From an uncultured Gammaproteobacteria bacterium (lineage in GTDB: Bacteria > Patescibacteriota > Microgenomatia > UBA10105 > UBA927): a stretch of 64,000 nucleotides of DNA. Below, piece after piece: positions 8,545-51,677 of the stretch. The position numbers were made by a program, and so were the translations under genes. Under the pieces are notes generated by a model. It was not told the DNA's origin, ran no database searches, and was given only the letters and a program-made list of their open reading frames with translations. The stretch's first letter is position 1, and each line of letters begins with the position of its first letter. Location of the stretch: the NCBI GenBank assembly GCA_964553825.1, contig CAZKLT010000004.1, positions 3,137-67,136 of the forward strand. Reading direction: 5' to 3'.

Positions 8545-8558
8545 AACTGTTATATCGA

Positions 8559-8580
8559 TTTCTTTGATCGCGCAAAGAAA
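8559..8580. promoter_or_regulatory. Palindrome TTTCTTTG-ATCGCG-CAAAGAAA 14 nt upstream of epimerase start codon (copy 1 of recurring motif)
   Basis: Inverted repeat read from sequence; followed by GAAAGAAAGCGCGCC as in the other copies. Confidence 0.45.
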
Positions 8581-8642
8581 CGGATGAAAGAAAGCGCGCC
8601 CACAGCGAAGATGTCCCTATGGTTCATCGTTTTGGAACACCT

Positions 8643-33983: not shown

Positions 33984-34982
33984 ATGGCTACAGTAAAGAA
34001 AGGCCACCCAAGTAATTTCCAGTTCGTATGGCGCGTGGGGTTAGTTTTGACGGCTATCCTGTTTGTTGTGCCCGTGCTTTTCCTGGCGGTCAACGCGCAG
34101 GAGCCTCCTGTCCCATACAACCCACCCGTGATTTTAGAGGCGACTGACACGGCTACGACGATGCCTGTGGCGACTGACACGGTTGAGCCCACCAACACGG
34201 TGCCGGCGGTAACGCCCACCTCAACCCGCATCCCGTGTCCACCTGTCGGCGAGCCTGCAGTTTACGGGGAAATCCGGGTTGTGTACCACGAGAGCGTGGG
34301 GGTGGATGCGTGTAATCTCATCCAGCGGTATGTTTCTCTAACCAATGAGAAGTTTTCTGCCATGGGATACGAGACTGGACCAATAGAGGTGGCAGTATTC
34401 ACCACTGTTGACGCCGTCACGGATTATACGTATGAAAAAGCCCGTTTGGCTGGGTGCAATCCTGACAGCAAGGACATCATCAGGTCCCAATGGACTCGTG
34501 GCGGCGCCATGAGTACGCACGGTGTCGCGTTGTTCATGACCACCGGATGGTGGAATGAAAATCCCTTGAACGAGCGGATTGTGGCTGTCGTCCATGAAAC
34601 AACACACGTGGTTCAGGGTAACTATGCCGGAAGCTGTGCGCGTAGCTGGCAAGTGCCAGATTGGTATTCCGAGGGACAGGCGCAGTATTTTGGCCGGCTT
34701 TTTGAATCCCAGTGGGGAATTATGCCGGCGGATATACGCTCGAATCTCTTGGGGTGCCGCGGACAGTTATCCAATCTATCCGGTGATTGCCTATACATGC
34801 AGGGGGAGCAAGCATTTGTTCTCCTTGCTCACCTTTATGGTGAGAAAAGCATGGATGTCTGGGTAAAGTTCGCCGAGGGAAAGTCGTTCAACACGGCTTT
34901 CTACGAAACATACGGCACAAGCGTCTCCCAGTTTTCAAGTGACTTTGATGCTTATGTCAAGGGAGGCTACCGTTTGCCGTAA
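33984..34982 (+). CDS. Secreted/membrane-anchored putative zinc metallopeptidase (HExxH) with Thr/Pro-rich linker
   Basis: N-terminal TM, T/P-rich low-complexity linker, VVHETTHVVQG (HExxH) with downstream E (EGQAQYFG); SD-like AGGAAAAAGAGG upstream. Confidence 0.5.
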   Translation: MATVKKGHPSNFQFVWRVGLVLTAILFVVPVLFLAVNAQEPPVPYNPPVILEATDTATTMPVATDTVEPTNTVPAVTPTSTRIPCPPVGEPAVYGEIRVVYHESVGVDACNLIQRYVSLTNEKFSAMGYETGPIEVAVFTTVDAVTDYTYEKARLAGCNPDSKDIIRSQWTRGGAMSTHGVALFMTTGWWNENPLNERIVAVVHETTHVVQGNYAGSCARSWQVPDWYSEGQAQYFGRLFESQWGIMPADIRSNLLGCRGQLSNLSGDCLYMQGEQAFVLLAHLYGEKSMDVWVKFAEGKSFNTAFYETYGTSVSQFSSDFDAYVKGGYRLP

Positions 34983-35002: not shown

Positions 35003-35055
35003 AACCCGGGGAGCGAGTTTGCTCCAACTTGTTCCCTGGGTTCGTATCATTTTTT
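35003..35055 (+). terminator. Possible terminator (compound hairpin AACCCGGG...CCCTGGGTT then T5)
   Basis: Imperfect stem, 8-nt gap before T-run; weak. Confidence 0.3.
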
Positions 35056-35079: not shown

Positions 35080-35637
35080 ATGGATGTGCAACAGTCGCAA
35101 TCACCACCAGGTGTACCACAACAACCAATACAGCCAATACAAGCACCGCCTCCTCCCGTCCCTGTCCAACCGCAGGCACCGCCTCCCACAACCGTGCAGG
35201 AGCAGCCGGTGAATGTTCACAAACGTTCCTCCCTGGGTATGTGGCTTTCTATCGCTTTTTTTATTCTTCTGGTTATCGCCGGGAATGTGTATATATTTCT
35301 TCCAAGAAGTGAGATTGATGTAGCAAATCCGGCACCCGGACGGACAATTCATGTGAACAAATTGTTTCTAACCAAGCCGGGCTGGCTGATCATCAGCCAT
35401 GTTTCAGTCGTGGAAGGAGTTACCGAGATTGCCGTTACTGCGCTCTTGGGACCGGAAGATTATCGTGATTTTGACCTGCCGCTTATGAGCGACGCGCTGG
35501 ATTTGGCGTCAGGGGATTTACTCTACGCAACACTGTATGAGGATACGAATGGCAATGAGGGATATGACTCGCGTATTGATAAGCCCATGCGAGATGCGTT
35601 ATTTCGCCCCATTCGCGTCAGCGTACGGGTTCAGTGA
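35080..35637 (+). CDS. Small membrane-anchored exported protein, family A (Pro/Gln-rich N-terminus)
   Basis: PGRTIHV..L.L.KPGWLIIS...LYEDTNGN...PIRV shared with 35710..36171. Confidence 0.55.
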   Translation: MDVQQSQSPPGVPQQPIQPIQAPPPPVPVQPQAPPPTTVQEQPVNVHKRSSLGMWLSIAFFILLVIAGNVYIFLPRSEIDVANPAPGRTIHVNKLFLTKPGWLIISHVSVVEGVTEIAVTALLGPEDYRDFDLPLMSDALDLASGDLLYATLYEDTNGNEGYDSRIDKPMRDALFRPIRVSVRVQ

Positions 35638-35709
35638 TTGTCCGTACAGGTATGCAGGGTGGGGGTGATTGTGTGTGAAGTATCGTAATACCAAAACATC
35701 CTGAGTGTT

Positions 35710-36171
35710 TTGGGCGCACCGTCAGCTCTTACTATGCAGGCGTCACGACCGATTGCGCAAAAAACTACCTGGTTTATCCCCATTGGGATAGCCAGCGTTT
35801 TCCTCGTATTGCTGGCTGGCTGGTTTATGGCCACTGCGCGAAGTTCCGTGCGGATTCAGGATCAAAAACCCGGACGAACCATCCGGGTGGCCGAACTTTC
35901 CCTTGCGCGTCCCGGCTGGCTGGTGGTCAACCGTGTGAATTTGACAGGCGGCGACGATGAAATTGCTGCTACACCTCGCTTAACGCCCGAGCAGTATAGA
36001 GAGTTTGATATTTCCCTGAAGGATGGGATGCCAGATCTTGCAACGGGGGATTTTTTGTTTGCTGTATTATATGAAGATCGCGATGGAAATAAACTGCTTG
36101 ATACTCTGGTTGATCGACCTATGAACAACCGCTGGGGCAGGCCGATACGTATCTTATTGCGCGTCAAATAA
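35710..36171 (+). CDS. Small membrane-anchored exported protein, family A
   Basis: PGRTIRVAELSLARPGWLVVN...LYEDRDGN...PIRILLRVK paralog of previous. Confidence 0.55.
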   Translation: MGAPSALTMQASRPIAQKTTWFIPIGIASVFLVLLAGWFMATARSSVRIQDQKPGRTIRVAELSLARPGWLVVNRVNLTGGDDEIAATPRLTPEQYREFDISLKDGMPDLATGDFLFAVLYEDRDGNKLLDTLVDRPMNNRWGRPIRILLRVK

Positions 36172-36173
36172 TG

Positions 36174-36875
36174 TTAGAAGATAGTCGTGTTTGGAAGCAT
36201 TTCCTGGAGAGTAGTGTAGGTTGCGGCGTCGATAGCATTTCCTCCCAGATACAGGTAGCGCAGGTTTGTGAGGCGAGACAATTCCTCAGGGAGCGTGGTG
36301 AGTCTGTTGCTACGCAGATCCAACGACGTTAATGCTGCCAGATCGCCGATCGTAGCCGGGAGATGGGTAATTGCGTTGTTGTTCAGTCGAAGCGTAACGA
36401 GTGCAGTCAGTTTCCCGATTTCGGGGGGGAGTTCTGTAAGCTTGTTGAACGGTAGTTCTAACGCGGTCAAACCGACGAGGTCACCGATTTGCGCAGGCAT
36501 CTGCGCCATCTGCGTATTGCTGACGCGAAGAAACGTGAGCGATGAGAGAAGTCCAATTTCCTGAGGGAGGTGCCGGAAAGAGGCGCTTTCTATGGTTAGC
36601 CGCTCAAGGGCAATGAGCGTGGCGATTTCTGCTGGAAGCATCTCTACAGTATCTTGCGGTGAAATATTGAGATCCTTCAGGTGCGGATTTTCGGCGATGA
36701 TCGCAGCGAGGCGCGCAGTGTCTGTCGGCTGCTGTAGTTGCCCCTGCGAGATGGTGGTGCCGCCAAAATGTGCAAACCGTGCGGCAAGATGCGGCGTAAG
36801 CTGCACCAGGCTGATAATCGCAGCTGCAAGCGATATGATGATGACCAGGGCACTGAGTGTGCGGCGTGCTGTCAT
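36174..36875 (-). CDS. Leucine-rich repeat protein, N-terminal membrane anchor
   Basis: Seven+ 23-aa LRR units (L..LP..IG.L..L..L.L..N.L..LP). Confidence 0.85.
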   Translation of the reverse strand: MTARRTLSALVIIISLAAAIISLVQLTPHLAARFAHFGGTTISQGQLQQPTDTARLAAIIAENPHLKDLNISPQDTVEMLPAEIATLIALERLTIESASFRHLPQEIGLLSSLTFLRVSNTQMAQMPAQIGDLVGLTALELPFNKLTELPPEIGKLTALVTLRLNNNAITHLPATIGDLAALTSLDLRSNRLTTLPEELSRLTNLRYLYLGGNAIDAATYTTLQEMLPNTTIF

Positions 36876-36912
36876 TGACAGTATTTAGTATAGCATGTAA
36901 GACTAAGACTGC

Positions 36913-37344
36913 ATGATGCGGTGGATTGTCATTGGTTTTTGCTGGCTTGTTGCGCTTGCAGCACAGGGCGCGCGTTGGAGCCTGCAGCAGTCTGCCATAG
37001 CTGTCCATGACCAGCCCATCGGGGATACGGTTGTTGTGGATCGCGCGCGTACACCTGAACCAGGTGTTTTGGCTGTTGTAAACTCCCTTTACGGCAAGCC
37101 CTATTTTGAGCATATCCTTGATCAGGTAGACCTTCCCCGCGCGGGGACATATACACAGGTACAGATGTCAATCGCACAATATTCGCTCGGTTCTTCCCAG
37201 GCGCCCGAAGGCACAGAGGGGATATTGTCTCCAGGAAGCCTTGTCTATGCCGTGCTTATGGTTCCTAAGGCGCCGGGAGAAACACCGGAGCCGATGCGTG
37301 ATATTACCGGAAAACCGCTTGCCCACCCATTTCGATTACAGTAG
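36913..37344 (+). CDS. Small exported protein, family A (divergent)
   Basis: Signal anchor then V.DQPIGDTVVVDRA..PG.LAVV pattern shared with 38610..39014. Confidence 0.5.
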   Translation: MMRWIVIGFCWLVALAAQGARWSLQQSAIAVHDQPIGDTVVVDRARTPEPGVLAVVNSLYGKPYFEHILDQVDLPRAGTYTQVQMSIAQYSLGSSQAPEGTEGILSPGSLVYAVLMVPKAPGETPEPMRDITGKPLAHPFRLQ

Positions 37345-38070
37345 CTAGAAGTGTATATCGACATCCGGAAGTATGGCGCGGATGCGTGCCTTTTCTGTCT
37401 CAGAAATAAGATTTCCTCCCACATACAGTCGTTTTAGTGTACCGTTAAGTTTTGTCATGGAGTCAGGCAGCGTCCTGAGCCTATTGGACCGGGCATCCAG
37501 GACGGTCAGCGCCGTAAGATTGCCGATCGAATCGGGAAGCGTGGTGAGGCGATTGTCATAGATGTGCAGCGTGGTGAGGCGCGTAAGCGCTCCGATGGAA
37601 TCCGGAAGGGTCTCAAGCGCGTTTCCGCCCAGCTTCAGTGTCTCCAGCCGTGTAAGATTGCCAATCGTATCCGGAAGGTGCATTATGCGCTGGTCCTGTA
37701 TTTGCAGTCGGGTGAGCGAGGTAAGCGACCCGAGAGAAGCAGGAACGACGCGTACGTTTCCCCGGACAACTCCATAGCGGGCGAGCTGTTTCATGGGCAG
37801 AAGGGTGTCGATGTGAAGCGCGTTGATGTTGCATACCGGCGAATAGTCCAGCGTCGTTACCCGGGGCAATTTTTCCCAGACAGCGCGCAGTGACCTGCCG
37901 GCATCCCGGTCATACGTGCCCAGCGTCTCACAGTATTCCACCGGATCGTACGCCAGTTGTCTTGCAACGGGTTGAACCAGGAGTGTCGCGCCGGATACCC
38001 ATCCGGCAAAAAGGGACACACCCCACAGAAGAAGGGAAAAAGCCGGTGTGTGTCGTGCCTGCATGCGCAT
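37345..38070 (-). CDS. Leucine-rich repeat protein, N-terminal membrane anchor
   Basis: LPDTIGNLTRLETLKLGGNALETLPDSIGALTRLTTLHIYDNRLTTLPDSIGNLTALTVLDARSNRLRTLPDS. Confidence 0.85.
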   Translation of the reverse strand: MRMQARHTPAFSLLLWGVSLFAGWVSGATLLVQPVARQLAYDPVEYCETLGTYDRDAGRSLRAVWEKLPRVTTLDYSPVCNINALHIDTLLPMKQLARYGVVRGNVRVVPASLGSLTSLTRLQIQDQRIMHLPDTIGNLTRLETLKLGGNALETLPDSIGALTRLTTLHIYDNRLTTLPDSIGNLTALTVLDARSNRLRTLPDSMTKLNGTLKRLYVGGNLISETEKARIRAILPDVDIHF

Positions 38071-38106
38071 AGAATTCGTATACCTGCTATCATTATAGCA
38101 ACGATT

Positions 38107-38613
38107 ATGACAGCGGCGAAACAGGCTCTCTCCTACGAAACGTGGGGCATCTTGGTTGTTTTCTTTCTTCTTGCGGCTGTGGCGTATTTTATCCGTTTCG
38201 TCGATACGCCGTCGCGGAAAATTTTTGGTGCGCAGATGTTTAACCAGGTTACGAACCGTGCGGACATGCCGATATGGGAGAACCCCGATTTCCCGCGTCA
38301 GGCAGGTTTACTTGAGATTTTTTCCATAAATGGCATGCTTGTGTTTGATGGTCACTTTGAACGACCTCTTCCCAAGACATCACTTGTCGTGTGGGTGCAT
38401 GTGGGAAGCTGTCGGCACATGGGAGAGAGGCGCTACGTACTGCCGCCGACATCAGCAGAAGCATCGGTCTGGTGGACGAGTTTGTATGCGTTCCCCTGGG
38501 AGCGGCTTTCGGGTGAGCTTCCGCTTGCGGTTTCGTTTCGCGATCCGGACGGTGAGCATGCGATATATTATTGCGCTGATATTCTGATGGAACAGGAAGG
38601 AGAGGCACCATGA
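38107..38613 (+). CDS. Hypothetical membrane-anchored protein
   Basis: Start set at internal Met to avoid overlap with LRR gene; one N-terminal TM. Confidence 0.4.
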   Translation: MTAAKQALSYETWGILVVFFLLAAVAYFIRFVDTPSRKIFGAQMFNQVTNRADMPIWENPDFPRQAGLLEIFSINGMLVFDGHFERPLPKTSLVVWVHVGSCRHMGERRYVLPPTSAEASVWWTSLYAFPWERLSGELPLAVSFRDPDGEHAIYYCADILMEQEGEAP

Positions 38614-39014
38614 GTGCATGGATACTCGCGGCACTTGTGTTTTGTCTAAGCGCGGTGGTTTCGGCGTACGTATCGCTTGCGCGCACAGCGTATGATCTGG
38701 TCGTGAACGATCAACCGGTCGGGACATCGATTGTGGTTGAGCGGCTGGTGCTTGAAAAAGGAGGCTATCTTGCCATCACACCGCTTTCCGGTCCAAACAC
38801 GCAGCAGTCAGTTTCCGACTATATGCCTGCAGGCGTATTTACTGATTTCAATGTGGATATCTATTGGGGAGACGAGCTTGATCTTCCGGCGCAGACGCCG
38901 GTAGTTGTACGGATCCTCGTGGATAACGGGGATGTGTACTTTGACTCGGAATTTGATGTACCTGCCCGAAACGCGCAGGGGCAGATGTATGAAAAAACGA
39001 TTGTCCTTCGGTAG
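38610..39014 (+). CDS. Small exported protein, family A (divergent)
   Basis: ATGA overlap with previous; VVNDQPVGTSIVVERLVLEKGGYLAI. Confidence 0.5.
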   Translation: MSAWILAALVFCLSAVVSAYVSLARTAYDLVVNDQPVGTSIVVERLVLEKGGYLAITPLSGPNTQQSVSDYMPAGVFTDFNVDIYWGDELDLPAQTPVVVRILVDNGDVYFDSEFDVPARNAQGQMYEKTIVLR

Positions 39015-40128
39015 ACTGGCCGTTGTTGTCGCGCTTGCTGTCCTGTGCGGCTTGGCGGCAGGTGCTTTGTTTAGAGGAATCAGAGGGGAGACGCTGAGGG
39101 AGCATGTCGCCTCCGCGTTTACATCCTGCGCAGAACCCACGAAGGAATTCGACTACAACTGTCTGCGAACGGTCATGACGCCGCTTGTGCGTGAGGATAC
39201 GCTTACACCCGTAATGGAGCACCTGCACGATATTTTTTCGTCGCCTGATGTTTCGCTTCAGACGCATGGTGCGCTGACGTGTCATCCGTCCGGCCATGTG
39301 GCAGGAGAGATAGCCGCAGAGAAACACATAGCGTTTTCCCGTATTACGCAGTTGTGCGGCGCGTCGTGCGATTACGGATGCACACATGGGGCATTTGTGG
39401 TAACGCTGCGGCGTGATCCTGGCTTTCTGGACAGAGTGGGTACCCTGTGCGATGAACTTTCTTCTTCCGGTATACGGCGGCAAATGTCTTCGTGTGGGCA
39501 TGTCGTCGGCCATGGGTTGGCCGAGGTATTTGCCAGCAACACTGACAAGGCTCTCGGGTATTGCGATGCGATTGATGATGCGTCCGCGCGTCATGCCTGT
39601 GGGCAGGGGGTTATGATGGAACAGCTTATTGGACTGCCAGACCGGCCAAAGAATATACCGTTGTCGTTGGAAAGCGTGCTGGTATTTTGCGACAGCCTTC
39701 CGGGTGTCTATAGGAAAGAGTGTTTCGATAACGTAGGAACGTATGCCGGACGGATTACGCAAACGGTACAGGAGGCGAAAGATGTCTGCACGCATGTTCC
39801 TGCTGAGTCAGCCGTGGCGTGTGTACAATCTCTTGGCGGCGTGGCGTACTATCATTTCCGGCATGAACCGGAGCAAATGAGCGCATACTGTCGCTCGATG
39901 GACAGTGCAGTGCAGGCGCCGTGCGTTCGGGGCGTTCTGGAGACCAGCGTCGGCGAAAAAGACCGCTTATGGTATGGCAATGCCCTCTGCAGGACATTTG
40001 CGCAATCCGCCCGCAGGGATTGTTTCGCATACTTCGGTATCCAGGTGGGCATGGCCTGGGGAGACCAGGTACGGGCAGATACGTGCAGTGCGCTGGAGAA
40101 AGAGGATATGCAGGCGTGTCAATTATGA
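38989..40128 (+). CDS. Cys/His-rich membrane-anchored paralog 1 (subtype D)
   Basis: N-terminal TM; CHPSGHVAGE..CGASCDYGCTHGAF..CGHVVGHG..CGQGV; start at internal Met MKKRLSF. Confidence 0.65.
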   Translation: MKKRLSFGRLAVVVALAVLCGLAAGALFRGIRGETLREHVASAFTSCAEPTKEFDYNCLRTVMTPLVREDTLTPVMEHLHDIFSSPDVSLQTHGALTCHPSGHVAGEIAAEKHIAFSRITQLCGASCDYGCTHGAFVVTLRRDPGFLDRVGTLCDELSSSGIRRQMSSCGHVVGHGLAEVFASNTDKALGYCDAIDDASARHACGQGVMMEQLIGLPDRPKNIPLSLESVLVFCDSLPGVYRKECFDNVGTYAGRITQTVQEAKDVCTHVPAESAVACVQSLGGVAYYHFRHEPEQMSAYCRSMDSAVQAPCVRGVLETSVGEKDRLWYGNALCRTFAQSARRDCFAYFGIQVGMAWGDQVRADTCSALEKEDMQACQL

Positions 40129-41066
40129 ATATCCGCACCATTTTTTCCCGCCTTCCGGTGCCCATGAGGTGGGTCATCCTGCTTGGGGCAATCGGGATAG
40201 CGCTTTTTGCCGTTACCAAGACAGGATATACCGACCGCCGGCATCCAGCGCTTCTGAGTGGCAGGGAAGTCGTACGGGTGCGTGGACAGATTACGCGTGT
40301 CATGCGGACGAAAGGGCCGCGGGTAGCGTATGCATACGCCAAGACATTGTTTCCGTACGACACATCGGGTGTTTCCCAGCACTTGACGATGCATATCTTT
40401 GCGGAAGTGGCGTACGGCCGGTACGGCGCCACCGCCATGGCGTATTGTGATCGGGAGTTTTCATATGGGTGCTATCATGGCTTTTTGGGGCAGAATATTG
40501 CCCGTGAGGGTCTGGACGCGGCGCGAGATCTTTTTCTGGCATGTAAGGATGAACCGAATGTCATCGCATGCCAGCATGGGATCGGGCATGGCATTATGCA
40601 ATATATGGGCCACAGACGTTTGAAGGATGCTCTTGATGCTTGTGTGCAGATCGGCGCACCCGTCGCCGCGACCGGATGCTTCGGTGGTGCGTATATGGAG
40701 TATCACTTTCCCGCGTTGTCAGCCGGCGGGGCACAGACGGCGATGCGGTTTGATCCAGAGAATCCGTATGACGTCTGTCCTGAGCTCCCGACTGCGTACC
40801 AGTCGTCGTGTTACTTCCGTCTGGCCGAGTGGTGGGAGCAGATTCTTAGCCGTAACTACCGCCTGATGGGCGGACTGTGTGCCAGGATAGGGGAGAGCGG
40901 GATGCGTGAGCAGTGCTTTACCGCCATCGGGGCAACGAGTTTTACCACCGGGGGACATATCCGGCAGGGGGTTATCGATGCCTGCAATCAGGCGACAGGC
41001 AGCCCGGGATACGAGCGGTACCGGGATATCTGTTTGCGGGGATTTGATACACAGAGTCAACGTTGA
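40125..41066 (+). CDS. Cys/His-rich membrane-anchored paralog 2 (subtype D)
   Basis: ATGA overlap with paralog 1; MHIFAEVAYG..CDREFSYGCYHGF..CQHGIGHG..CFGGAY. Confidence 0.7.
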   Translation: MNIRTIFSRLPVPMRWVILLGAIGIALFAVTKTGYTDRRHPALLSGREVVRVRGQITRVMRTKGPRVAYAYAKTLFPYDTSGVSQHLTMHIFAEVAYGRYGATAMAYCDREFSYGCYHGFLGQNIAREGLDAARDLFLACKDEPNVIACQHGIGHGIMQYMGHRRLKDALDACVQIGAPVAATGCFGGAYMEYHFPALSAGGAQTAMRFDPENPYDVCPELPTAYQSSCYFRLAEWWEQILSRNYRLMGGLCARIGESGMREQCFTAIGATSFTTGGHIRQGVIDACNQATGSPGYERYRDICLRGFDTQSQR

Positions 41067-41072
41067 TCAGGC

Positions 41073-42161
41073 TTAGTTCTTCCAGACGTTGTGGACCAGG
41101 ATGCCCTCCGTGAAGTAATTGTGCTGTTCTCCCGGAAGGCTGAGGTTGTAGACGGGCGGATTTTCGTCTACTGCTGTAATGCTGCCCACGAGTAGCTGGT
41201 TTCCCTGGGGGTCAAGGAGCATATCGTTCACGCGAATAGCGTCGGCTCTGAGCCACGCCTTCCTGTTTTCCACCCAGATATTGTGACCTTTCGTGACACG
41301 CAGTGTCCCGTTGATCACCAGATACCCTGCTTCCTGCGACTCCGGATCTTCCGAGGGACTTGTATGAACCAGAAGCGCGGCTACAGGATTGGGTACCAGA
41401 GTTTCTGTCGTTAGGTCGTAGGAGAGTACAACGTCGCCCGGTCTGATATCCTGTATTTCCTTCAGGGTGCCGTCTGCCATAAGTACCTTGGTGCCAGCCA
41501 GGAAACATCCGCCATAGCTGCCATATGATGATTGCCCGTACCCATAATAGCTTGCTTGTCCATAGCCATAGCTGTAAGAATAGTAGCTGCTTTGGCTATA
41601 GGCATAGTAGTTGGATTGGCTATAGGCATAGTAGTTTGCCTGGCCGTAATTATAGTAGGTGGATTCGGAGTAGGAATAGCAATTATTGGTGTACTGCCCA
41701 TTACCGTCGTCGCAATCTGCACTGAGGGACTTCATGAGGCCAATTCTTCTTCTTCCGGGTGCAGACGCATCATAGTATTGGGCAGTGGGACTAAACCACC
41801 CGTCTGCATCCGCGTCATCAATCCAAAGACCGTTGCCTACCAGAAGCTGGCCGCTGCCGATTGCAATACCACCCGCGCCGTTGATGATAAATTGTCCGGC
41901 AATGATTTTCTGGCTTGACGAGAGGGTCAGATTGTAATCTCCCAGAGTGATGGTAGCGGAATTTGTCGTGGATGATTCGCTGTTTTGCGGGTTGTCTACC
42001 CCGTCAATCGTATATGAGTATGTACAGGAAGCCGTGAGGACGACGTTGCCGTATGTTGTCGCAGGACGGGCACAATCAGCTAACACCGTGTGTTTCGGCG
42101 CGAGAAGGAGCAAGAATACGAGTGCGCAAAGTAATGCAAGGGGTGTGAAAAGTCTTTTCAT
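41073..42161 (-). CDS. Secreted protein with C-terminal Hint (bacterial intein-like, BIL) domain and Tyr/Ser/Gly-rich linker
   Basis: Signal peptide; ...YYAYSQSNYYAYSQSSYYSYSYGYG... then CFLAGTKVLMADG (Hint block A), TKGHNIW (block B TxxH), VYNLSLPGEQHNYFTEGILVHN (blocks F/G) ending 4 aa before stop with Val at +1. Confidence 0.85.
   Translation of the reverse strand: MKRLFTPLALLCALVFLLLLAPKHTVLADCARPATTYGNVVLTASCTYSYTIDGVDNPQNSESSTTNSATITLGDYNLTLSSSQKIIAGQFIINGAGGIAIGSGQLLVGNGLWIDDADADGWFSPTAQYYDASAPGRRRIGLMKSLSADCDDGNGQYTNNCYSYSESTYYNYGQANYYAYSQSNYYAYSQSSYYSYSYGYGQASYYGYGQSSYGSYGGCFLAGTKVLMADGTLKEIQDIRPGDVVLSYDLTTETLVPNPVAALLVHTSPSEDPESQEAGYLVINGTLRVTKGHNIWVENRKAWLRADAIRVNDMLLDPQGNQLLVGSITAVDENPPVYNLSLPGEQHNYFTEGILVHNVWKN
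41560..41660. repeat. Tandem ~24-bp DNA repeats (TTGGCTATAGGCATAGTAGTT..) encoding the NYYAYSQS repeats of the Hint protein
   Basis: Direct repeats read from sequence inside CDS 41073..42161. Confidence 0.6.
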
Positions 42162-42164
42162 ATG

Positions 42165-42740
42165 TTAGCGAAACGCAAAGCCGCCTGTATAGGTTTCATC
42201 TGTGCCGACCAGGGTGAAGTCGAGATAGTATATTTCGTTGTAGGTGTCGTCAGAAATGCGAGTCGCTTGCCACGTGCCGTTGGTGTCGGTACCCGCGATA
42301 CGCGTAAATGTGAGTGGTGTTTTCTTCGTATCGGTGTCGAGCCGCGCCGTGACCGACGTGATGGGGGATGTATGGGTGGCCTTTACGGTGATCGTCTGAG
42401 TGACACCGGGTTTCACGCCAAGCGGATCAAGGCTGAATTCGTAGATTTTGGGGCCCTTGGCTTTTGGACCCGGAGCATATTGGAATGTTTCTTTCCCGGG
42501 ATTAAGAAGTCGGGGAGACGGCTTGGGTCGCATGCTGGCGGTAGGAGTAGCGCCGCCCGATTCTTCTGCGGGCACACCGCTTAACCAAGAAACCATCTCA
42601 CCCTTTTGCGTAAAAATGTAGAATGCCAATAGAAGTACAATAGCACCAATGCCTATAAAAAGAGGGGTATTGGAGATGCCGTTGGACCTTACCTTATTCA
42701 CGATATGATTTCTTTTAGACTTTGCCTTATGTAATTTCAT
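42165..42740 (-). CDS. Hypothetical membrane-anchored protein (beta-rich ectodomain), operonic with Hint protein
   Basis: N-terminal TM (LFIGIGAIVLLLAFYIF); 4-nt gap to downstream Hint gene. Confidence 0.5.
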   Translation of the reverse strand: MKLHKAKSKRNHIVNKVRSNGISNTPLFIGIGAIVLLLAFYIFTQKGEMVSWLSGVPAEESGGATPTASMRPKPSPRLLNPGKETFQYAPGPKAKGPKIYEFSLDPLGVKPGVTQTITVKATHTSPITSVTARLDTDTKKTPLTFTRIAGTDTNGTWQATRISDDTYNEIYYLDFTLVGTDETYTGGFAFR

Positions 42741-42865: not shown

Positions 42866-44047
42866 ATGAAAAAGGTGATATTTATCGGTGTTCTCGTGTT
42901 CCTTTTTGTTGCGTGGGCTTTCCGCGCCAAACCCCAGGTCAAATCGTACCCTGAAGTGTCCTATCTTGCAGCGCAGACTATGGACTTCGGACAGTTAAGT
43001 ACGTTTTTCACCAGGCTTGCGCAAACCAAGGGAGCCGCCTATGCGTTTGAGGTTCTCGGACAGGCGTCACTCCCGCCAAATACGGATATGCACCTGCTTG
43101 GTCATGTCGTGGGAGATGAATTATATAAAGAAAAAGGAATTGACGGGATGCGTATTTGTACGCAGGATTTTCGGAATGCCTGCTCTCATTCCATTGTTGT
43201 GGGATATTTTCTTGCCCATGGAGAAGAGGGATTGGGGGCGATAGCCGAAGCATGCAGAACTGCTCCGGGAGGAAGTGGCGCGTATACCATGTGTTTCCAC
43301 GGCCTTGGTCACGGTATTCTGGCAGCTGTTGACTACGATCTTCCCCGGGCTGTTGCCCTGTGCCAGAAAACGGGAACACTTCCGTACGGATACCGTGAGG
43401 CTTCCGAGTGTTCCAGCGGGGCCGTCATGGAGATTATATCCGGAGGGTTTCATAATAAGACACTTTGGGAAAAGGCCTCAAAACGCTATCTGTCCTTGAC
43501 CCAGCCGCTTCTTCCCTGTGTCGCTGACTATATGCCGGCAGTCGCGCGGCCGTCCTGTTTTGAATATCTCACTGGACACCTGGTTACGGCTGCGGGCGGC
43601 TCACTGGATACGGGTGTGCCGACGGATGAGGTCATTGTGCGCGCTATGCAAATGTGCACTCAGGTGGTTGACGCAGCTCCTCGGGATGCGTGTTACAAAG
43701 GATTTGGAAAAGAATTTATCGTCCTTGTGCACAATCGCGATACGCGGACATTGACGGATATGAACGATGAAGAAATGAACGAAACATACCGCCTGTGTGG
43801 CCTTGCTCGCGATACGCGCGGGGAACAGATGTGCCTGACGCATGCGCTTGATTCTCTCTACTGGGGAGGCGAAAACGATATCCGCGGGGCAGTACGGTTC
43901 TGTGCGCTGATGTCATCTCCGGTTATGAAGGAGACTTGTTTTGCGCACTTAACGGGTGCTATACAATTCTTTGCGAAGACCCCGAGGGAGAAAAACGAAG
44001 ACTGTGGAGCGCTTCCCGAAGCGTACAGAAGCAGGTGTTATGAATAA
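42866..44047 (+). CDS. Cys/His-rich paralog 3 (subtype D)
   Basis: DMHLLGHVVGDELY..CTQDFRNACSHSIVVG..CFHGLGHGI..CSSGAVME. Confidence 0.7.
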   Translation: MKKVIFIGVLVFLFVAWAFRAKPQVKSYPEVSYLAAQTMDFGQLSTFFTRLAQTKGAAYAFEVLGQASLPPNTDMHLLGHVVGDELYKEKGIDGMRICTQDFRNACSHSIVVGYFLAHGEEGLGAIAEACRTAPGGSGAYTMCFHGLGHGILAAVDYDLPRAVALCQKTGTLPYGYREASECSSGAVMEIISGGFHNKTLWEKASKRYLSLTQPLLPCVADYMPAVARPSCFEYLTGHLVTAAGGSLDTGVPTDEVIVRAMQMCTQVVDAAPRDACYKGFGKEFIVLVHNRDTRTLTDMNDEEMNETYRLCGLARDTRGEQMCLTHALDSLYWGGENDIRGAVRFCALMSSPVMKETCFAHLTGAIQFFAKTPREKNEDCGALPEAYRSRCYE

Positions 44048-45524
44048 CAGAAAGGCGATAACAGGAGGGACGATTGCCGTTTTTGCCGCATGCGTGTGGG
44101 TGTTTTGGGCAAAGGCGTTCGTCGTGGGAGACGGCAGGAGTATAACGTTCCGTCAGGACGGTTACCGGCCCACGCGATTAACCGTGCGCGTCGGGGATTC
44201 CGTGACGTTCAGAAACAATTCGGGCAAGCCATTCTGGCCAGCCAGCAATAACCACCCAATCCATGAACTGTATCCCGAATTCGATCCGCGTAAGCCGATT
44301 GCTCCCGGTGAGTCATGGCAGTTTACGTTTACCCAAGAAGGAAAATGGCGTTTTCATGATCATATATATCCGGAATTTCGCGGCACGATCATGGTGCTCC
44401 CTCCGGGGAAAACCACCCTTCCGCCGCTTGACTGCAGTGCGTCTGCTGATGCCCAAACAAAAGGTCGCTGCTGGGAGGAAACCCTCAGTGATGCCCTGGA
44501 AACACGCGGCATTGCGGGCGCGTTCAAGGAATTTTCCCGATTGTATAAAACGGACACCGACTTCATACGCAGCGGGTGTCATGTGCACGCCCATAGGATC
44601 GGGGATGAATTTTTCCAGGCATATGCATCCAAGCTGCGGAAGCTGGAGGGCATAGAATTGCCCGTGGAAACTATGAGCTGTGGATACGGGTTTTTCCACG
44701 GATTGTTTGAACATTTTTTCCGGAAGTATCCGGATGTAGAATTGGCGCGGGCGATTTGTGACGACTTGGATTCGCGCTACAGCAAGACAATTCCGCTTAT
44801 CCGTATCAACTGTTTCCATGGCGCCGGTCACGGACTGATTGCGGATCCTCCCGATCCTTCATCCTGGGGAAACCCAAAGTCGCTTGTGGCTGGGCCGCTT
44901 GCGCTGTGTGCGCAAATTTCCCATATACCCGATGAATCGCATGCCTGCATTGACGGGATATTCAATGTCGTATCCAGTTGGATGGGGGACGCCAAGTACG
45001 GTATGAGCATAGACGCGGCAGATCCGTTCTGGCTTTGTGAATCAGTCCCCGACGTGGCAAAGGAATCCTGTTATTATGAACAAATTATGGTAATGAGCGA
45101 GATGGAGAATAGGGATCTGCTTGCAATTACGCGGAAATACGTGGCACCGATTGCGGATCCGCAGATCGCAAGGCTTGTTATGTTCTCGCTTGCGGCATCG
45201 TTCATGCAAAAAGACGTCGCACTTGCCGATCACGCGCATATGCTCGTGAATTGTAGAAATGTGCCCGCCGGTCTGAAAGAACGTTGTTTAGAAGGCGTGT
45301 TAAACGGTTTTAAGGGACATGGCGAACCGGGAAATGAATACAACAAAGCGCTGGCATTCTGTGCGCTTCCCCAGATGACGCGGGAGGAACAGCAGGTCTG
45401 TTATCCGTATCTGGTAAGGATTCTTTGGGAGTTATATCCGGCCCAAAAAGTGTTGTCTCTTTGTTCAATGATTCCCAGTGAATACAGAAATGCCTGCGAA
45501 ACACGGATGATTCAGCAAAACTAA
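44040..45524 (+). CDS. Cys/His-rich paralog 4 with N-terminal cupredoxin-like domain (subtype C)
   Basis: TM, then ITFRQDGYRPTRLTVRVGDSVTFRNNSGKPFWPASNNHPIH...WQFTFTQEGKWRFHDHIYPEFRGTIMVL, then CHVHAHRIGDEFF..CGYGFFHGLFE..CFHGAGHG; 8-nt overlap with paralog 3. Confidence 0.7.
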   Translation: MNNRKAITGGTIAVFAACVWVFWAKAFVVGDGRSITFRQDGYRPTRLTVRVGDSVTFRNNSGKPFWPASNNHPIHELYPEFDPRKPIAPGESWQFTFTQEGKWRFHDHIYPEFRGTIMVLPPGKTTLPPLDCSASADAQTKGRCWEETLSDALETRGIAGAFKEFSRLYKTDTDFIRSGCHVHAHRIGDEFFQAYASKLRKLEGIELPVETMSCGYGFFHGLFEHFFRKYPDVELARAICDDLDSRYSKTIPLIRINCFHGAGHGLIADPPDPSSWGNPKSLVAGPLALCAQISHIPDESHACIDGIFNVVSSWMGDAKYGMSIDAADPFWLCESVPDVAKESCYYEQIMVMSEMENRDLLAITRKYVAPIADPQIARLVMFSLAASFMQKDVALADHAHMLVNCRNVPAGLKERCLEGVLNGFKGHGEPGNEYNKALAFCALPQMTREEQQVCYPYLVRILWELYPAQKVLSLCSMIPSEYRNACETRMIQQN

Positions 45525-45526
45525 CG

Positions 45527-46696
45527 ATGAAAACTGTCATATCGCACCGTTTCCCTTTCGTCATAGGTTTTGTTCTCGTGTTGGCTATCGGCGCAGGTCT
45601 CTTTGCGGGGAGTGGACAATTTGGCCGGCCTACCTGTGATCAGAAAGATGCGGAAGCACTGAAAAAATGTTGGGAAGCGGTGGTGTCAGTGTCTATGAAG
45701 AAGGGAGATATCGCAGGCGCATTTGATTCGCTGGCTGACCTCTATGGTGCCGCACCTAATCTGGGAGAAACGTGTCATAGTCTTACTCATGAGATAGGCC
45801 GAACGGCGTATCGGTTGTTTGCGCGCGATGTTGACTTTGGCATTACGCCGAAAACCGCATACTGTTCCTATGGCTTTTACCATGGGTTTATGGAAGAGCT
45901 GGTTTTGGCAAAAGGCGACATGAAGCTTGCGCGGGAATTTTGCAGTTATGTGGATCAGCAGCTTGTAAAGGTGAGTCCGGACGTGACGCTTCAGTGTTAT
46001 CACGGTATCGGGCACGGAACCGTCAATAATCATGATCCAAGAACATGGGGAGATCCGCAGAAGCTTATCGACCCGGCCATTGCGCTGTGTGAGGAAGTGG
46101 CGACGAATGACAGCGAAGTAAACCGATGTGCAACCGGGGTCTATAACGGACTTGCCGTTTTTTACAGCAACGGCGAATACAAATTAACGCTTGACCGAAA
46201 TGATCCGGTCGGCATTTGCAGAAGGCAGCCAGAGAAGTACCAGGATGCCTGTTATGTCAGTTTCAATACGCTTCTTTTGGGGTTGACGGGATATGATTTG
46301 GCAAAGGCTGCGACGTACCTTGCCCATATTCCCCAGGATGTGATTGCACAGCATGCCATGATTAACCTGGCATCTCCCGTCGGCACCAAACATATCACGG
46401 AAACAGACCATGCTCCAACGATTTCTGTCTGCCGGTCGCTGCCCGCGCGTATTCGGCTTGCGTGCATTCAGGGATATGCGTTTGGTTTTTTGGAACACGG
46501 TGAACCGACGAAAGAATACATAAAACCTCTTCAATTTTGCGAATCAAATCAGCTTACTACAGAAGAGCAAAATGCATGCTTTGAGTACATTTTAGGGTAT
46601 CTTCCCAGATGGTATGCCAAAGAGAAAGTTTTGATGATTTGTTCGGATCTTAATCCGAAATGGAAGGAATATTGTGAGAAGCAAACTATTCAATAG
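45527..46696 (+). CDS. Cys/His-rich paralog 5 (subtype B)
   Basis: KCWEAV..CHSLTHEIGRTAY..CSYGFYHGFMEEL..CYHGIGHG..CATGVYNGL. Confidence 0.7.
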   Translation: MKTVISHRFPFVIGFVLVLAIGAGLFAGSGQFGRPTCDQKDAEALKKCWEAVVSVSMKKGDIAGAFDSLADLYGAAPNLGETCHSLTHEIGRTAYRLFARDVDFGITPKTAYCSYGFYHGFMEELVLAKGDMKLAREFCSYVDQQLVKVSPDVTLQCYHGIGHGTVNNHDPRTWGDPQKLIDPAIALCEEVATNDSEVNRCATGVYNGLAVFYSNGEYKLTLDRNDPVGICRRQPEKYQDACYVSFNTLLLGLTGYDLAKAATYLAHIPQDVIAQHAMINLASPVGTKHITETDHAPTISVCRSLPARIRLACIQGYAFGFLEHGEPTKEYIKPLQFCESNQLTTEEQNACFEYILGYLPRWYAKEKVLMICSDLNPKWKEYCEKQTIQ

Positions 46697-48101
46697 AGCG
46701 CATGCATTTTTTCTGTTTACGGCATCAGGAATTTTGGGCCTCATTGCTTTTGTTGCTGTCGGCACCTGGTTTTCCAATACCGTTATTACCTTGACGGATG
46801 ACGGATTTTCTCCGAGGGTGGTAGTAGTGAGGAAAGGGGCGACAGTTCGCTTCAGTTCAAATCGTGGGCGATATTTCTGGCCCGCATCCGATCCGCACCC
46901 CATCCATACGAAGGAGCTGAGTTTTGATCCGAAGCGTGCCATTGCCCCGCAGGGTCAGTGGGAGTTTGTTCCCATGTCAGCAGGAATTTGGACATACCAT
47001 GATCACACCGCTCCGCAGTTTCGCGGGACGGTTATTGTACTTGCGGGCGACAGCAGCGTTTTGTCGTATGTGTGGGGACGTATTGGTCAGTGGGCTCGCA
47101 TCGTTTTGCTGAACACGCAGCGGCAAAGCGATGCATATTTCCGCGACTGCGGCCCTCTGGGTAAGGACTGTTGGGACAGAGCGTTTCTCGAAGTGGTCAA
47201 CCGCGAGGGGTCGCGGGAGGCATTAAGAATGGTGGATTATCTGCGGCGGACGTATCCTGAGTTTGCCAATTATTGCCACCAGTATGCCGATTTTATTGGT
47301 GACATTTCTTATTGGAATATACCTGCGGCGCGCAGAGTTCTTGATTTTGACATCTCGCTTGCCGGGCAGTGCTCAAGCGGCTACATGCACGGATATATGG
47401 GAGAGTTTATGTCACACGGTATTTTCGCGCAGGGTGTGGCATTTTGCGATCAGATTAGAGCCAAATACCCGGGAACAGAAGCGGCATTGGAGTGTTACCG
47501 GGGGATCGGCAATGGGCTTACCTTTCAAAACGGTTTTCTCTATTGGAATGATGAAACAGCGATCGTCGATCACGCTCTTGCCGGTTGCAGCGGGTTGGCA
47601 GAAGAAGATGCCTGTCGAAGTGGGGTATTTGTGGGGATAGATCACATGCATTTTGGCGTACACGGTTTTGAGTTACGACGTGATCCGAATGATCCGTTTG
47701 CGCTTTGCCGTGGCCGGGATACCGTTACCGAGGCTGCCTGTTATGATGCGACGATCTCATCCTTTTTTGCGGCGGTTGGTTATGATTTGTCCGAAGCGGC
47801 GAAGCATCTGCGCATACTACCCCTTATTCATGCCAAGCGCGTGGTGGAGCAAGTCGTGAAAATTCCTTACGAGCTGGAAGATTTTGAACGGAAAGGCGGA
47901 AATATGACCATTATTGCCTGGTGCCGATCAATCGGCGGTGCCTTACATCCTGCATGTTTTCGGGGATTTGTCCTGAAGTTATACACGATCGATGTTGAGT
48001 ATAATGGACAAAGTAGTCTTGCCCGCGAATTCTGTGGGAATTCATTTCTGAATCAGTCAGAGAAAGACATGTGTCAGCAGATATTCAATGAAGCCATATA
48101 A
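46674..48101 (+). CDS. Cys/His-rich paralog 6 with cupredoxin-like N-domain (subtype C); GTG start
   Basis: ITLTDDGFSPRVVVVRKGATVRFSSNRGRYFWPASDPHPIH...WEFVPMSAGIWTYHDHTAPQFRGTVIVL; 23-nt overlap with paralog 5. Confidence 0.65.
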   Translation: MRSKLFNRAHAFFLFTASGILGLIAFVAVGTWFSNTVITLTDDGFSPRVVVVRKGATVRFSSNRGRYFWPASDPHPIHTKELSFDPKRAIAPQGQWEFVPMSAGIWTYHDHTAPQFRGTVIVLAGDSSVLSYVWGRIGQWARIVLLNTQRQSDAYFRDCGPLGKDCWDRAFLEVVNREGSREALRMVDYLRRTYPEFANYCHQYADFIGDISYWNIPAARRVLDFDISLAGQCSSGYMHGYMGEFMSHGIFAQGVAFCDQIRAKYPGTEAALECYRGIGNGLTFQNGFLYWNDETAIVDHALAGCSGLAEEDACRSGVFVGIDHMHFGVHGFELRRDPNDPFALCRGRDTVTEAACYDATISSFFAAVGYDLSEAAKHLRILPLIHAKRVVEQVVKIPYELEDFERKGGNMTIIAWCRSIGGALHPACFRGFVLKLYTIDVEYNGQSSLAREFCGNSFLNQSEKDMCQQIFNEAI

Positions 48102-49269
48102 ACTCATTATTCCAATTTCATTATTTTTTCTGGTTACCGCTTCCTATGTGGGCCTGTATCGCGGAGCGGGATCGACGCCCCAACATGCAGCGCAGCGTGT
48201 CATCAGTCGGTGTCAGAACGAAGCCCACCGACCTGCCTGTTATGAGCGGGAGATTCCGAAACTCATGAACACGCTCTCCATGGAAGATGCCTTTGCCGTC
48301 ACCCGTCTGGTGCAGGACGCTGATCCAGCGTTTGCATACTGTCATGTGGTAGCGCATAAATTAACCGCGATAGAAACAAAAAAGAATCCTCTGAGGTGGA
48401 AAGACGTCATGCTCAGGTGTCCGCAATCGGCGTGTAATTACGGCTGCCTCCACGGATCGCTTATCGAACGGTTCCGCGGAGAAACACTCAGCGATACGCA
48501 GATCGCTCAAACCGAACTCAGCATAAAAGATCTCTGTGAGCCGCGCCCGGGATTTGCTCCAACGGAAATTGAGCGCACGATGTGTTATCACGGCATAGGA
48601 CATCTTGCGATGTATATGACCGGAGGAGATCCTGCGCGCAGTATTCCGGTATGTGAGCGGCTTGCGAAGCGGGACGATGGCCGGGAGTATATAAAAACGT
48701 GTGTTGAAGGCGTATTTATGACTGTTTTTCAGAGTATCGATCCTGAAGATCTCGCCCTCGTTATCGACATTAGGCCCAACAAGCAGGATGTTGGCGCTTT
48801 CTGTGAGCAGTACGGTGTATACGTGGCCAACTGCCGACGTGAATCTTACGCGATGTTCGCAGACGAAACCCAAACCGCCGAAGGACTCCGCTCTTTCTGT
48901 TCCTATGCCCGCGGAGAAGAGGAAAAGCGGGATTGTTATTGGGCGGTGATTAACGCCAAAACGACGATATTCTTTGAACAGTCCGATTCGGTTTCCCGGA
49001 TTGGAGCATACTGTCGATCGTTTCCGGCAGACACTCGCAGCTGGTGCTGGCGGGGAGCGGCTATGCGGTTAGTACAAATAGATCCGTTGAGGAATGTCCG
49101 TGCGGCTGATTCCGTCTGCGCTATGGGGTCGACACAAACAGAAATCCAATCCTGTTATCAGGATTTGCTTTATTATGCTGAATTCTCGTTTGAAAAAAAC
49201 AGCCAACCATATAAAGAGTATTGCGGCGGCCTTGCCGAATCCTGGAGACAGCAATGCGTCAGTCAATAA
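48088..49269 (+). CDS. Cys/His-rich paralog 7 (subtype A)
   Basis: RCQNEAHRPACYEREIPKLM..YCHVVAHKL..CNYGCLHGS..CYHGIGHLAMYMTGGD. Confidence 0.7.
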   Translation: MKPYKLIIPISLFFLVTASYVGLYRGAGSTPQHAAQRVISRCQNEAHRPACYEREIPKLMNTLSMEDAFAVTRLVQDADPAFAYCHVVAHKLTAIETKKNPLRWKDVMLRCPQSACNYGCLHGSLIERFRGETLSDTQIAQTELSIKDLCEPRPGFAPTEIERTMCYHGIGHLAMYMTGGDPARSIPVCERLAKRDDGREYIKTCVEGVFMTVFQSIDPEDLALVIDIRPNKQDVGAFCEQYGVYVANCRRESYAMFADETQTAEGLRSFCSYARGEEEKRDCYWAVINAKTTIFFEQSDSVSRIGAYCRSFPADTRSWCWRGAAMRLVQIDPLRNVRAADSVCAMGSTQTEIQSCYQDLLYYAEFSFEKNSQPYKEYCGGLAESWRQQCVSQ

Positions 49270-51676: not shown

Positions 51677-51677
51677 T

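Follow-up and report, generated by a model that had tools for sequence, protein, structure and literature searches.

A conserved cassette of DUF7282 and leucine-rich-repeat protein genes in a cell-envelope island

The results of this work suggest that seven tightly packed genes, at positions 35080-39014 of the window (the whole stretch of DNA analysed, 64,000 nucleotides), form a conserved, lineage-specific and co-regulated set of extracytoplasmic envelope proteins that work together, a reading to which we give a probability of roughly 45%. In the list of open reading frames they follow one another in the order A1, A2, LRR1, A3, LRR2, B and A4, with both LRR genes on the minus strand and all the others on the plus strand, and they encode four DUF7282 proteins (family A), two leucine-rich-repeat (LRR) proteins and one cysteine-pair protein, B. 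This order and its near-zero spacing had been reported in an earlier, sequence-only reading of the region and are borne out by the coordinates, successive gaps being 72, 2, 37, 0, 36 and -4 bp. That reading also had the cassette run straight into an array of Cys/His-rich genes, which is indeed the case: the first of these, CH1, starts at 38989, inside the last 26 bp of A4. Outside the cassette, the 64-kb window has no DUF7282 or LRR genes.

The cassette lies inside a larger cell-envelope and glycan-biosynthesis island, surrounded by PMT_2 and TPR glycosyltransferases, sugar-nucleotide enzymes, GT2 enzymes and other N-anchored proteins, with a PT-HINT protein 2 kb downstream. It is probably an ordinary set of cell-envelope proteins and not a collection of toxin-immunity pairs, and the ‘surface’ location of its products could mean the periplasm. 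Six of the seven products match a public protein collection exactly as translated, each as a singleton cluster and all from one NCBI contig of 73 kb, and the deposited A1 is a shorter form of 132 amino acids (P0158).

Layout and control signals

Three compact units make up the cassette: pep, a hairpin, A1 and A2; LRR1 head-to-head with A3; and LRR2 head-to-head with B-A4-CH1-CH2 (Table 1). In the last of these, translational coupling is suggested by the overlap of stop and start codons. The motif in the LRR1/A3 spacer, TGCTATACT, is conserved in four genomes and unique within the window, and TTGACA overlaps the LRR1 start codon in the same spacer; that of the LRR2/B spacer, TGCTATAAT, is found in the relative L001 too. 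Judging by their fit to the consensus, both motifs would be candidate promoters.

Table 1. Coordinates of the cassette genes, their immediate neighbours and the DNA elements between them
Feature	Positions	Strand	Description
pep	33984..34982	+	N-anchored HExxH peptidase-MA-like protein, Thr/Pro-rich linker
Hairpin	35003..35042	+	Terminator-like, between pep and A1; 17-pair stem; from consensus scan, function putative
A1	35080..35637	+	Pro/Gln-rich N-terminal tail of ~50 aa, one transmembrane segment, DUF7282 ectodomain
A2	35710..36171	+	TTG start; transmembrane helix and DUF7282 beta-sandwich; older A1-type paralog
LRR1	36174..36875	-	N-terminal hydrophobic segment, cap region of ~70 aa, six 23-residue leucine-rich repeats
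LRR1/A3 spacer	36876..36912		Head-to-head; minus strand TGCTATACT, extended -10-like, 10-11 nt before LRR1 ATG
A3	36913..37344	+	DUF7282 subfamily with GKPYF insertion, without acidic D-x-N-G-D loop
LRR2	37345..38070	-	N-terminal hydrophobic segment, cap with two Cys conserved in orthologs, five clear 23-residue repeats
LRR2/B spacer	38071..38106		Head-to-head; minus strand TGCTATAAT, extended -10 consensus, inside inverted repeat GCTAT-N4-ATAGC
B	38107..38613	+	Transmembrane helix, all-beta ectodomain, two invariant Cys
A4	38610..39014	+	DUF7282 subfamily with SDYMPAGV(Y/F)TDFN motif; 4-bp overlap with B, 26-bp overlap with CH1
CH1	38989..40128	+	First Cys/His-rich N-anchored protein; orthologs 47-63% identical

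The reading frame of A1 opens at 35029, and the ATG at 35080 yields an MDVQQ start that is conserved in orthologs. Within the cassette, the search for DNA repeats returned the 69-nt LRR period only (67-87% identity), with no long repeats and no trace of recent duplication at the DNA level.

The encoded proteins

DUF7282 (Pfam PF23951) is an uncharacterised domain of ~110 amino acids, for which no function, structure or paper was found in the literature searched. With the whole-protein gathering cut-off at 27 bits, A1 (29.0 bits) and A2 (33.2) lie above it and A3 (17.8) and A4 (25.8) below. The latter two join the family by profile-profile comparison, with hhalign probabilities against the A1-type profile of 98.9% (A3 type) and 99.0% (A4 type), and their orthologs carry precomputed PF23951 matches, so that all four A proteins are, by their sequence profiles, homologous. 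The motifs by which the sequence-only reading had grouped them largely hold, i.e., PGRTI.V..L.L..PGWL and RPIR in A1/A2 and V.DQP.G...VV.R in A3/A4, the exception being LYED.DGN, which fits A2 (LYEDRDGN) and not A1 (LYEDTNGN). Its expectation of a beta-sandwich ectodomain agrees with the AlphaFold (AF2) model of A2 (pLDDT 90.1), where a helix at residues 25-42 is followed by seven strands across residues 46-152; as modelled, the A proteins are single-domain DUF7282 beta-sandwiches after an N-terminal helix. Comparison of the A2 model with solved structures in the PDB gave no significant fold match; the best candidate, a porphyran-binding CBM, matched only weakly (E 8e-3, TM 0.42-0.55).

The A1/A2, A3 and A4 proteins fall into three distinct, old clades, each of which has orthologs of its own elsewhere and is interleaved with proteins from other sources. 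The A1, A2 and A4 types share an acidic loop, Y-x-D-x-N/D-G-D/N-x-x-F/Y-D (D in 52 and G in 41 of 60 sequences), whose consensus may point to Ca2+ binding. The family profile retrieves 818 cluster representatives from public data, many with a small ‘transmembrane segment plus one domain’ architecture, and the transmembrane segment precedes the domain in 75 of the 83 small single-domain representatives. Elsewhere, DUF7282 is found in multi-repeat proteins that also have a T9SS sorting tail, CARDB or YdjM membrane domains, and this co-occurrence indicates, at the level of domain architecture, a surface or structural role.

The two LRR proteins were correctly recognised as such from the start, since their Pfam scores are far above the cut-offs (LRR_14 84.6 and LRR_8 68.5 bits in LRR1; 69.1 and 50.6 bits in LRR2). 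They are paralogs, 36% identical and 233 and 241 amino acids long, and both are predicted to be short solenoids of 5-6 repeats with an N-terminal export or anchor segment; Pfam returns LRR domains only, with no domain after the LRR. In LRR2 the mean identity among orthologs is 0.60 at concave and 0.29 at convex positions (permutation p 1e-4), and in LRR1 it is 0.35 and 0.23, respectively (p 0.014), with 4-5 sequences per group. B has no sequence match in Pfam, NCBIfam or the PDB and belongs to no described family; it is unrelated to family A (hhalign probability 0.3%), and its AF2 model is poor (pLDDT 54.7).

Membrane anchoring had been proposed for the cassette products, and an N-terminal hydrophobic segment is present on all seven, the Kyte-Doolittle mean over an N-terminal 19-residue window exceeding 1.6 in six of them (at residues 56-74 in A1) and reaching a maximum of 1.52 in A3. 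For A3, A4, LRR1 and LRR2, however, the segment may be either a membrane anchor or a cleaved signal peptide; the short hydrophobic N-terminus of A3 may be of the cleavable kind.

Gene order in relatives

Orthologs of the cassette genes, with their order kept, are found on six to seven further contigs or MAGs from metagenomes. L001 and L002-L004 contain one-to-one orthologs in the same order and L016, L017, L018 and L019 contain partial copies, which answers the question of synteny in favour of a conserved arrangement. Identities of orthologs are 49-60% for A1 (83% for the L018 copy), 46-57% for A3, 44-63% for A4, 42-50% for LRR1 and 47-63% for LRR2; B has orthologs in L001, L002/L003, L007 and L017. 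The own ortholog of A2 is P0012 in L018, next after A1 and 58% identical, and L001 and L002 have no A2 counterpart. In the window, L001, L002 and L018, pep is immediately upstream of A1; its orthologs are 44-48% identical and its match to Peptidase_MA_2 (1e-5) is below the cut-off. CH1 comes after A4 in every locus reaching that far.

The adjacency of LRR and DUF7282 genes also survives rearrangement. In L002 a spermidine-synthase-like gene is inserted and A1 stays beside pep, away from LRR1, and still the LRR-DUF7282 adjacency is kept; in L007 the cassette is split and two separate adjacencies remain. Across six loci, eight of the nine LRR genes listed directly adjoin a DUF7282 gene, and the LRR gene of L017, where the contig is truncated on one side, adjoins B, beyond which lies A4. 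Across loci, LRR1 keeps A3 as its stable neighbour and LRR2 keeps B-A4, the head-side partner of LRR2 being B. The link itself is confined to a narrow clade, because L009 (a more distant relative), L010 and L014 hold DUF7282 genes beside TPR/PMT_2, CH-like and Hint genes, with no LRR gene; those of L009 occupy the same kind of envelope-glycosylation neighbourhood.

Interpretation and comparison with known systems

If the cassette is a co-regulated set, its products would be made together and cooperate on the outer face of the cytoplasmic membrane. The conserved concave face of each LRR would hold a conserved partner, most economically one of the neighbouring DUF7282 or B ectodomains. An LRR gripping a conserved partner in this way would thus form part of a small structural or adhesive surface complex, and not of an antagonistic pair. 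Direct LRR-DUF7282 binding would be plausible, the one indirect hint at binding between an LRR and its neighbour being the higher conservation of the concave over the convex face (4-5 sequences per group). A more specific version, which we hold to be unlikely, is a ‘split internalin-like’ surface receptor, where anchored LRR solenoids would capture the separately encoded DUF7282 (or B) sandwich on the concave face, and the resulting heteromeric envelope complexes would be expressed from compact extended -10 promoters in head-to-head arrangement; if true, this would be the first functional context for DUF7282.

It is conceivable, if doubtful, that the genes are neighbours by descent only, i.e., independent members of the envelope island each acting alone (e.g., as a coat protein with a structural role or as a PMT_2-type glycosyltransferase substrate), and that nothing functional follows from their adjacency. 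Collinearity with L001 and L002 extends over the whole 20-kb region, the flanking genes also being 52-74% identical, and most of the shared order could be such simple collinearity; the LRR-free DUF7282 genes of L009, the parting of A1 from LRR1 in L002 and the identity of the deeper-conserved DUF7282 neighbours (TPR/PMT_2, CH-like and Hint genes) all agree with it. Descent alone, however, fits poorly with L007, whose flanking genes have no counterpart in the window and where two LRR-DUF7282 adjacencies are nevertheless kept, with the conserved motifs of the shared spacers, and with concave LRR faces more constrained than convex ones. This last feature also weighs on the rather improbable idea that the cassette is an adhesion module through which the cell contacts a host or another cell, with LRRs binding an external ligand in internalin- or Leptospira-like fashion and DUF7282 proteins assisting as spacers or co-receptors: the concave faces stay conserved between orthologs of 42-63% identity, whereas host-contact surfaces often diversify, and the proteins are short and membrane-proximal, with 5-6 repeats only. 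In its favour are the export or anchoring of all products, the co-occurrence of DUF7282 with CARDB and surface-sorting domains, and the similarity of the repeats, greatest to LRR adhesins/effectors, though far below the family cut-offs.

The sequence-only reading had seen cognate receptor/ligand or toxin-immunity-like pairs duplicated as A+LRR units, and the alternation of the two families, as well as the paralogy of LRR1 and LRR2, would agree with it. Duplication as units, however, is contradicted by the three old clades of A proteins, by A1 standing with pep in L002, by DNA repeats limited to the LRR period and by stable sets of another composition, in which the head-side partner of LRR2 is no A protein at all. 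Nor is a toxin-immunity function apparent, since no toxin, defence or enzymatic domain was found with Pfam, NCBIfam, PADLOC (zero matches) or PHROGs (generic LRR matches only), and since, in every pair, the two proteins have export signals and their genes are on opposite strands. That proposal is largely refuted, and we regard it as highly improbable.

The preferred reading, an envelope protein set working together, bears comparison with several known systems. Polymorphic toxin/immunity pairs likewise consist of small neighbouring genes of repeated families, and the PT-HINT protein is nearby; here, however, the would-be ‘immunity’ proteins are exported, the two genes of each pair lie on opposite strands, and the orthologs are one-to-one and not polymorphic. 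LRR type III effectors (XopL, XopAC, XopAE, SlrP, SspH2) and Leptospira LIC_11051-type proteins have the same 23-residue repeat type, LxxLxLxxNxLxxLPxxIGxL, and provide the best NCBIfam matches of LRR1 and LRR2 (63-98 bits against cut-offs of 450-1243). Membership of the effectors was rejected, the best scores being 97.7 against 450 and 92.8 against 600 bits, with no E3-ligase, Fic or other effector domain; the cassette proteins differ from them in being short and having N-terminal hydrophobic anchors. Internalin-type surface proteins combine an LRR solenoid with an Ig-like inter-repeat domain, and the cassette likewise has an exported LRR solenoid and an Ig-like beta-sandwich, so that, by analogy, the DUF7282 sandwich may form an extension of the LRR or pack onto it. 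In the cassette, however, the modules are on separate genes and opposite strands and there is no LPXTG or GW anchor; membership of the internalins was rejected too, as inl_like_NEAT_1 (NCBIfam) scores 19.8 bits against a cut-off of 1275 and nothing follows the LRR in either protein.

Beyond the context it gives to DUF7282, the cassette is an ordinary lineage-specific cluster of surface proteins and no new kind of system. Compared with the DUF7282 genes of the distant locus L009, what distinguishes it is that three subfamilies stand together beside LRR genes, and this neighbourhood of LRR, Cys-pair and Cys/His-rich proteins in an envelope-glycosylation island offers a concrete, testable entry point to the function of DUF7282.

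Gene layout and surroundings

The seven-gene cassette is best read as a set of extracytoplasmic envelope proteins that is specific to its lineage and probably co-regulated; it consists of four family A proteins (A1 to A4), two leucine-rich-repeat proteins (LRR1 and LRR2) and a separate Cys-pair protein (B). The gene order, strands and coordinates read from the sequence alone agree with the ORF list, the intergenic gaps being, in order, 72, 2, 37, 0, 36 and -4 bp. The cassette runs straight into the Cys/His-rich array, as had also been described; CH1, the first gene of the array, starts at 38989 and overlaps A4 by 26 bp. The mean Kyte-Doolittle value of an N-terminal 19-residue window exceeds 1.6 in six of the seven products and peaks at 1.52 in A3.

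Features of the cassette and its neighbourhood (cassette genes from the ORF list)
Feature	Position	Strand	Remarks
pep	33984-34982		N-anchored HExxH (HETTH) peptidase-MA-like, Thr/Pro-rich linker; directly upstream of A1
A1	35080-35637	+	
A2	35710-36171	+	TTG start
LRR1	36174-36875	-	
LRR1/A3 spacer	36876-36912		37 bp
A3	36913-37344	+	
LRR2	37345-38070	-	
LRR2/B spacer	38071-38106		
B	38107-38613	+	
A4	38610-39014	+	
Cys/His-rich array	38989-41066 and 42866-53677		N-anchored paralogs, downstream of cassette
PT-HINT/Hint-domain protein	41073-42161	-	Tyr/Ser-rich low-complexity stretch, YYAYSQS repeats
191-aa protein	42165-42740	-	adjoins PT-HINT/Hint gene

Six of the seven products occur in the public protein collection, identical to the translation; each is a singleton cluster, and all six come from a single 73-kb NCBI contig. 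The deposited A1 (P0158) is truncated to 132 aa and has lost the conserved MDVQQ Pro/Gln-rich tail; because the MDVQQ start at 35080 is kept in many relatives, the start chosen in the sequence-only reading is preferable. Annotation of related loci shows comparable irregularities: the A2 ortholog of L018 is recorded as a 97-aa fragment (P0012) where a 166-aa ORF that includes a transmembrane segment is present (L018 779-1279), and the called starts of A3 in L002 and of B in L001 are apparently too early, judged by the conserved spacer motif.

Taken whole, the window forms an island of envelope and glycan genes. It encodes three DegT-type aminotransferases and four epimerases/dehydratases, along with GT2 enzymes, a methyltransferase, a membrane spermidine-synthase-like protein, PMT_2 and TPR-PMT_2 proteins and the PT-HINT protein. 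TPR-PMT_2 fusions, many N-anchored orphan proteins and Hint proteins mark its gene content, and DUF7282 (see below) and LRR genes were found by HMM scan in the cassette only. The Cys/His-rich paralogs carry paired cysteines 7-11 residues apart (e.g., CDREFSYGC) and have no Pfam match in any member; tblastn connects CH1, the following CH2 and the ORFs at 42866, 48088, 50447, 51678 and 52652. A foreign island was rejected on the GC content of the 34-40 kb region (0.525-0.538), which lies inside the window range of 0.488-0.545. Every 2-kb bin of the window has a positive GC skew (0.03-0.135), regardless of gene strand, and a tRNA scan and Rfam search of the whole window gave no tRNA and no Rfam-family RNA.

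Conservation in related loci and age of the paralogs

The arrangement recurs, whole or in part, in related public loci from metagenomic contigs and MAGs (loci carry L numbers), and every cassette protein has its positional ortholog as best BLAST match, at 40-63% identity, the flanking genes reaching 52-74%.

Gene order in related loci (minus sign: opposite strand)
Locus	Order	Remarks
L001 (GCA_964445435.1; CAYUKU010000002.1)	pep, A1, LRR1-, A3, LRR2-, B, A4, CH1, CH2, Hint-	
L002-L004	as L001	spermidine-synthase-like gene inserted between A1 and LRR1
L016	A1, LRR1-, A3	
L018	pep, A1, full A2 ortholog, LRR1 C-terminus	closest relative, A1 83% identical
L017, L019	(LRR2-), B, A4, CH1	

The peptidase gene precedes A1 in the window and also in L001, L002 and L018, and in L002 it still adjoins A1 after the latter was split from LRR1; the Hint and 191-aa gene pair lies beside CH genes also in L001, L002 and the distant L009. 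In L007 and L008 the cassette is itself split and its flanks have no counterpart in the window: a 114-aa DUF7282 gene is convergent with an LRR1-like gene and, seven kilobases off, an LRR2 ortholog diverges head-to-head from another DUF7282 gene, which B, A4 and CH1 follow. Across six loci, an HMM scan places a DUF7282 gene next to eight of the nine LRR genes listed, the ninth being that of L017, whose contig is cut on one side.

It had been proposed that each family A gene and its LRR neighbour were duplicated as a unit. The gene order is indeed kept, but co-duplication is not supported. In a neighbour-joining tree of domain sequences A1/A2, A3 and A4 form three separate clades, each with its own orthologs and with many proteins from other sources interleaved between them, and the sole DNA repeats in the region are those of the 69-nt LRR period (67-87% identity), so the paralogy is old and a recent tandem duplication is ruled out. 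LRR1 has A3 as its stable neighbour and LRR2 has B-A4-CH1, and A1 remains beside pep. Protein B is not a divergent A paralog either, as profile comparison finds the two unrelated. Its orthologs share two invariant Cys, it has no match in Pfam, NCBIfam or PDB, and its single-sequence structure model (pLDDT 54.7) is unreliable.

Spacers and the reading of the cassette

Head-to-head genes are separated by very short spacers, of 11-44 bp in most loci (window, L001, L002, L016). The DNA of the LRR1/A3 spacer is more conserved across four genomes than its coding flanks and holds, on the LRR1 strand, TGCTATACT at 10-11 nt before the ATG, a motif occurring once in the window, with TTGACA overlapping the LRR1 start codon; in the LRR2/B spacer TGCTATAAT lies on the LRR2 strand inside an inverted repeat common to L001. 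The extended -10 consensus is TGnTATAAT, which both motifs fit, making them candidate promoters. Such putative promoters would overlap the opposite gene and would imply near-leaderless transcripts. Around the cassette as a whole, sigma-70-like promoter matches number three, against 7.1 expected from shuffled sequence. A hairpin with a 17-pair stem lies 3' of pep.

The observation made from sequence alone is confirmed, and its interpretation is partly supported. Toxin-immunity-like pairing and defence fail because no such domain was found in Pfam, NCBIfam or PADLOC; PADLOC and PHROGs gave nothing specific, the PHROGs matches being generic LRR ones, and a phage origin was rejected. The main rival is that the gene order was simply inherited within the envelope island. 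It is favored by the more distant L009, L010 and L014, where a small and a 348-aa DUF7282 gene lie next to PMT_2/TPR, CH-like and Hint genes and no LRR gene is present, those genes being the deepest-conserved neighbours of DUF7282; on the other side stands the adjacency of LRR and DUF7282 genes in the nearer loci. Within the envelope protein set favored here, direct LRR-DUF7282 or LRR-B binding may reasonably be put forward, as a candidate only.

The protein families

LRR1 and LRR2 are, by profile, canonical LRR proteins, as had been claimed (Pfam LRR_14, 84.6 and 69.1 bits), with six and five clear 23-residue repeats respectively and 36% identity to each other; two Cys in the cap region of LRR2 are retained in its orthologs. 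Identity at variable positions is higher on the concave than on the convex face, both in LRR2 orthologs (0.60 vs 0.29, permutation p 1e-4) and in LRR1 orthologs (0.35 vs 0.23, p 0.014), the samples being small, with 4-5 sequences per group. At that sample size, this concave-face conservation suggests that each LRR protein may have a conserved ligand. In L007 the LRR2 ortholog shares a same-strand run (7171-9147, minus strand) with genes for a PMT_2 glycosyltransferase, a GDSL-lipase-like protein and a 184-aa product, which hints at a tie between LRR proteins and envelope glycosylation.

Family A is assignable to Pfam DUF7282: A1 and A2 score above the 27-bit cut-off (29.0 and 33.2 bits) and A4 and A3 below it (25.8 and 17.8), the A3 and A4 types matching the A1 type with profile-profile probabilities of 98.9% and 99.0%. 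The motifs quoted earlier are present in the family, except that 'LYED.DGN' reads LYEDTNGN in A1. Word-indexed homolog search with A2 as single query returned A2 itself alone, at least seven matches with a 35-sequence alignment and nine with 60 sequences; the A4-type alignment found one locus in the genome scan and one in the metagenome scan. An exhaustive profile search (E<=1e-3) gave 818 cluster representatives. Among the best 150 of these, 83 are small single-domain proteins, 75 of them with a transmembrane segment preceding the domain, and the remaining matches include proteins that repeat the domain up to 12 times. Such large proteins (P0007, of 2993 aa, P0014, P0024, P0028 and P0036) carry 3-12 tandem domains, and some add a T9SS sorting tail, CARDB or, at the N-terminus, a YdjM membrane domain; these architectures suggest that DUF7282 has a surface or structural function in general. 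Literature searches found no paper on DUF7282 and nothing relevant on LRR proteins in Patescibacteria. The cassette brings together new members of known but uncharacterised families, and their local arrangement is conserved.

The beta-sandwich ectodomain foreseen from sequence is supported by an AlphaFold2 model of A2 (16-sequence alignment, pLDDT 90.1), in which a helix (residues 25-42) precedes a beta-sandwich of seven strands. Family A has no significant match in a PDB sequence search, and Foldseek of the model against PDB gave nothing at E<=0.001, only generic Ig-like/CBM matches, the best being a porphyran-binding CBM (E 8e-3, TM 0.42-0.55), with Ig V domains next. Conserved family-wide is the loop Y-x-D-x-[ND]-G-[DN]-x-x-[FY]-D...D-x-P, which is missing from the A3 type; the loop resembles Ca2+-binding DxDxDG or dockerin-type loops.
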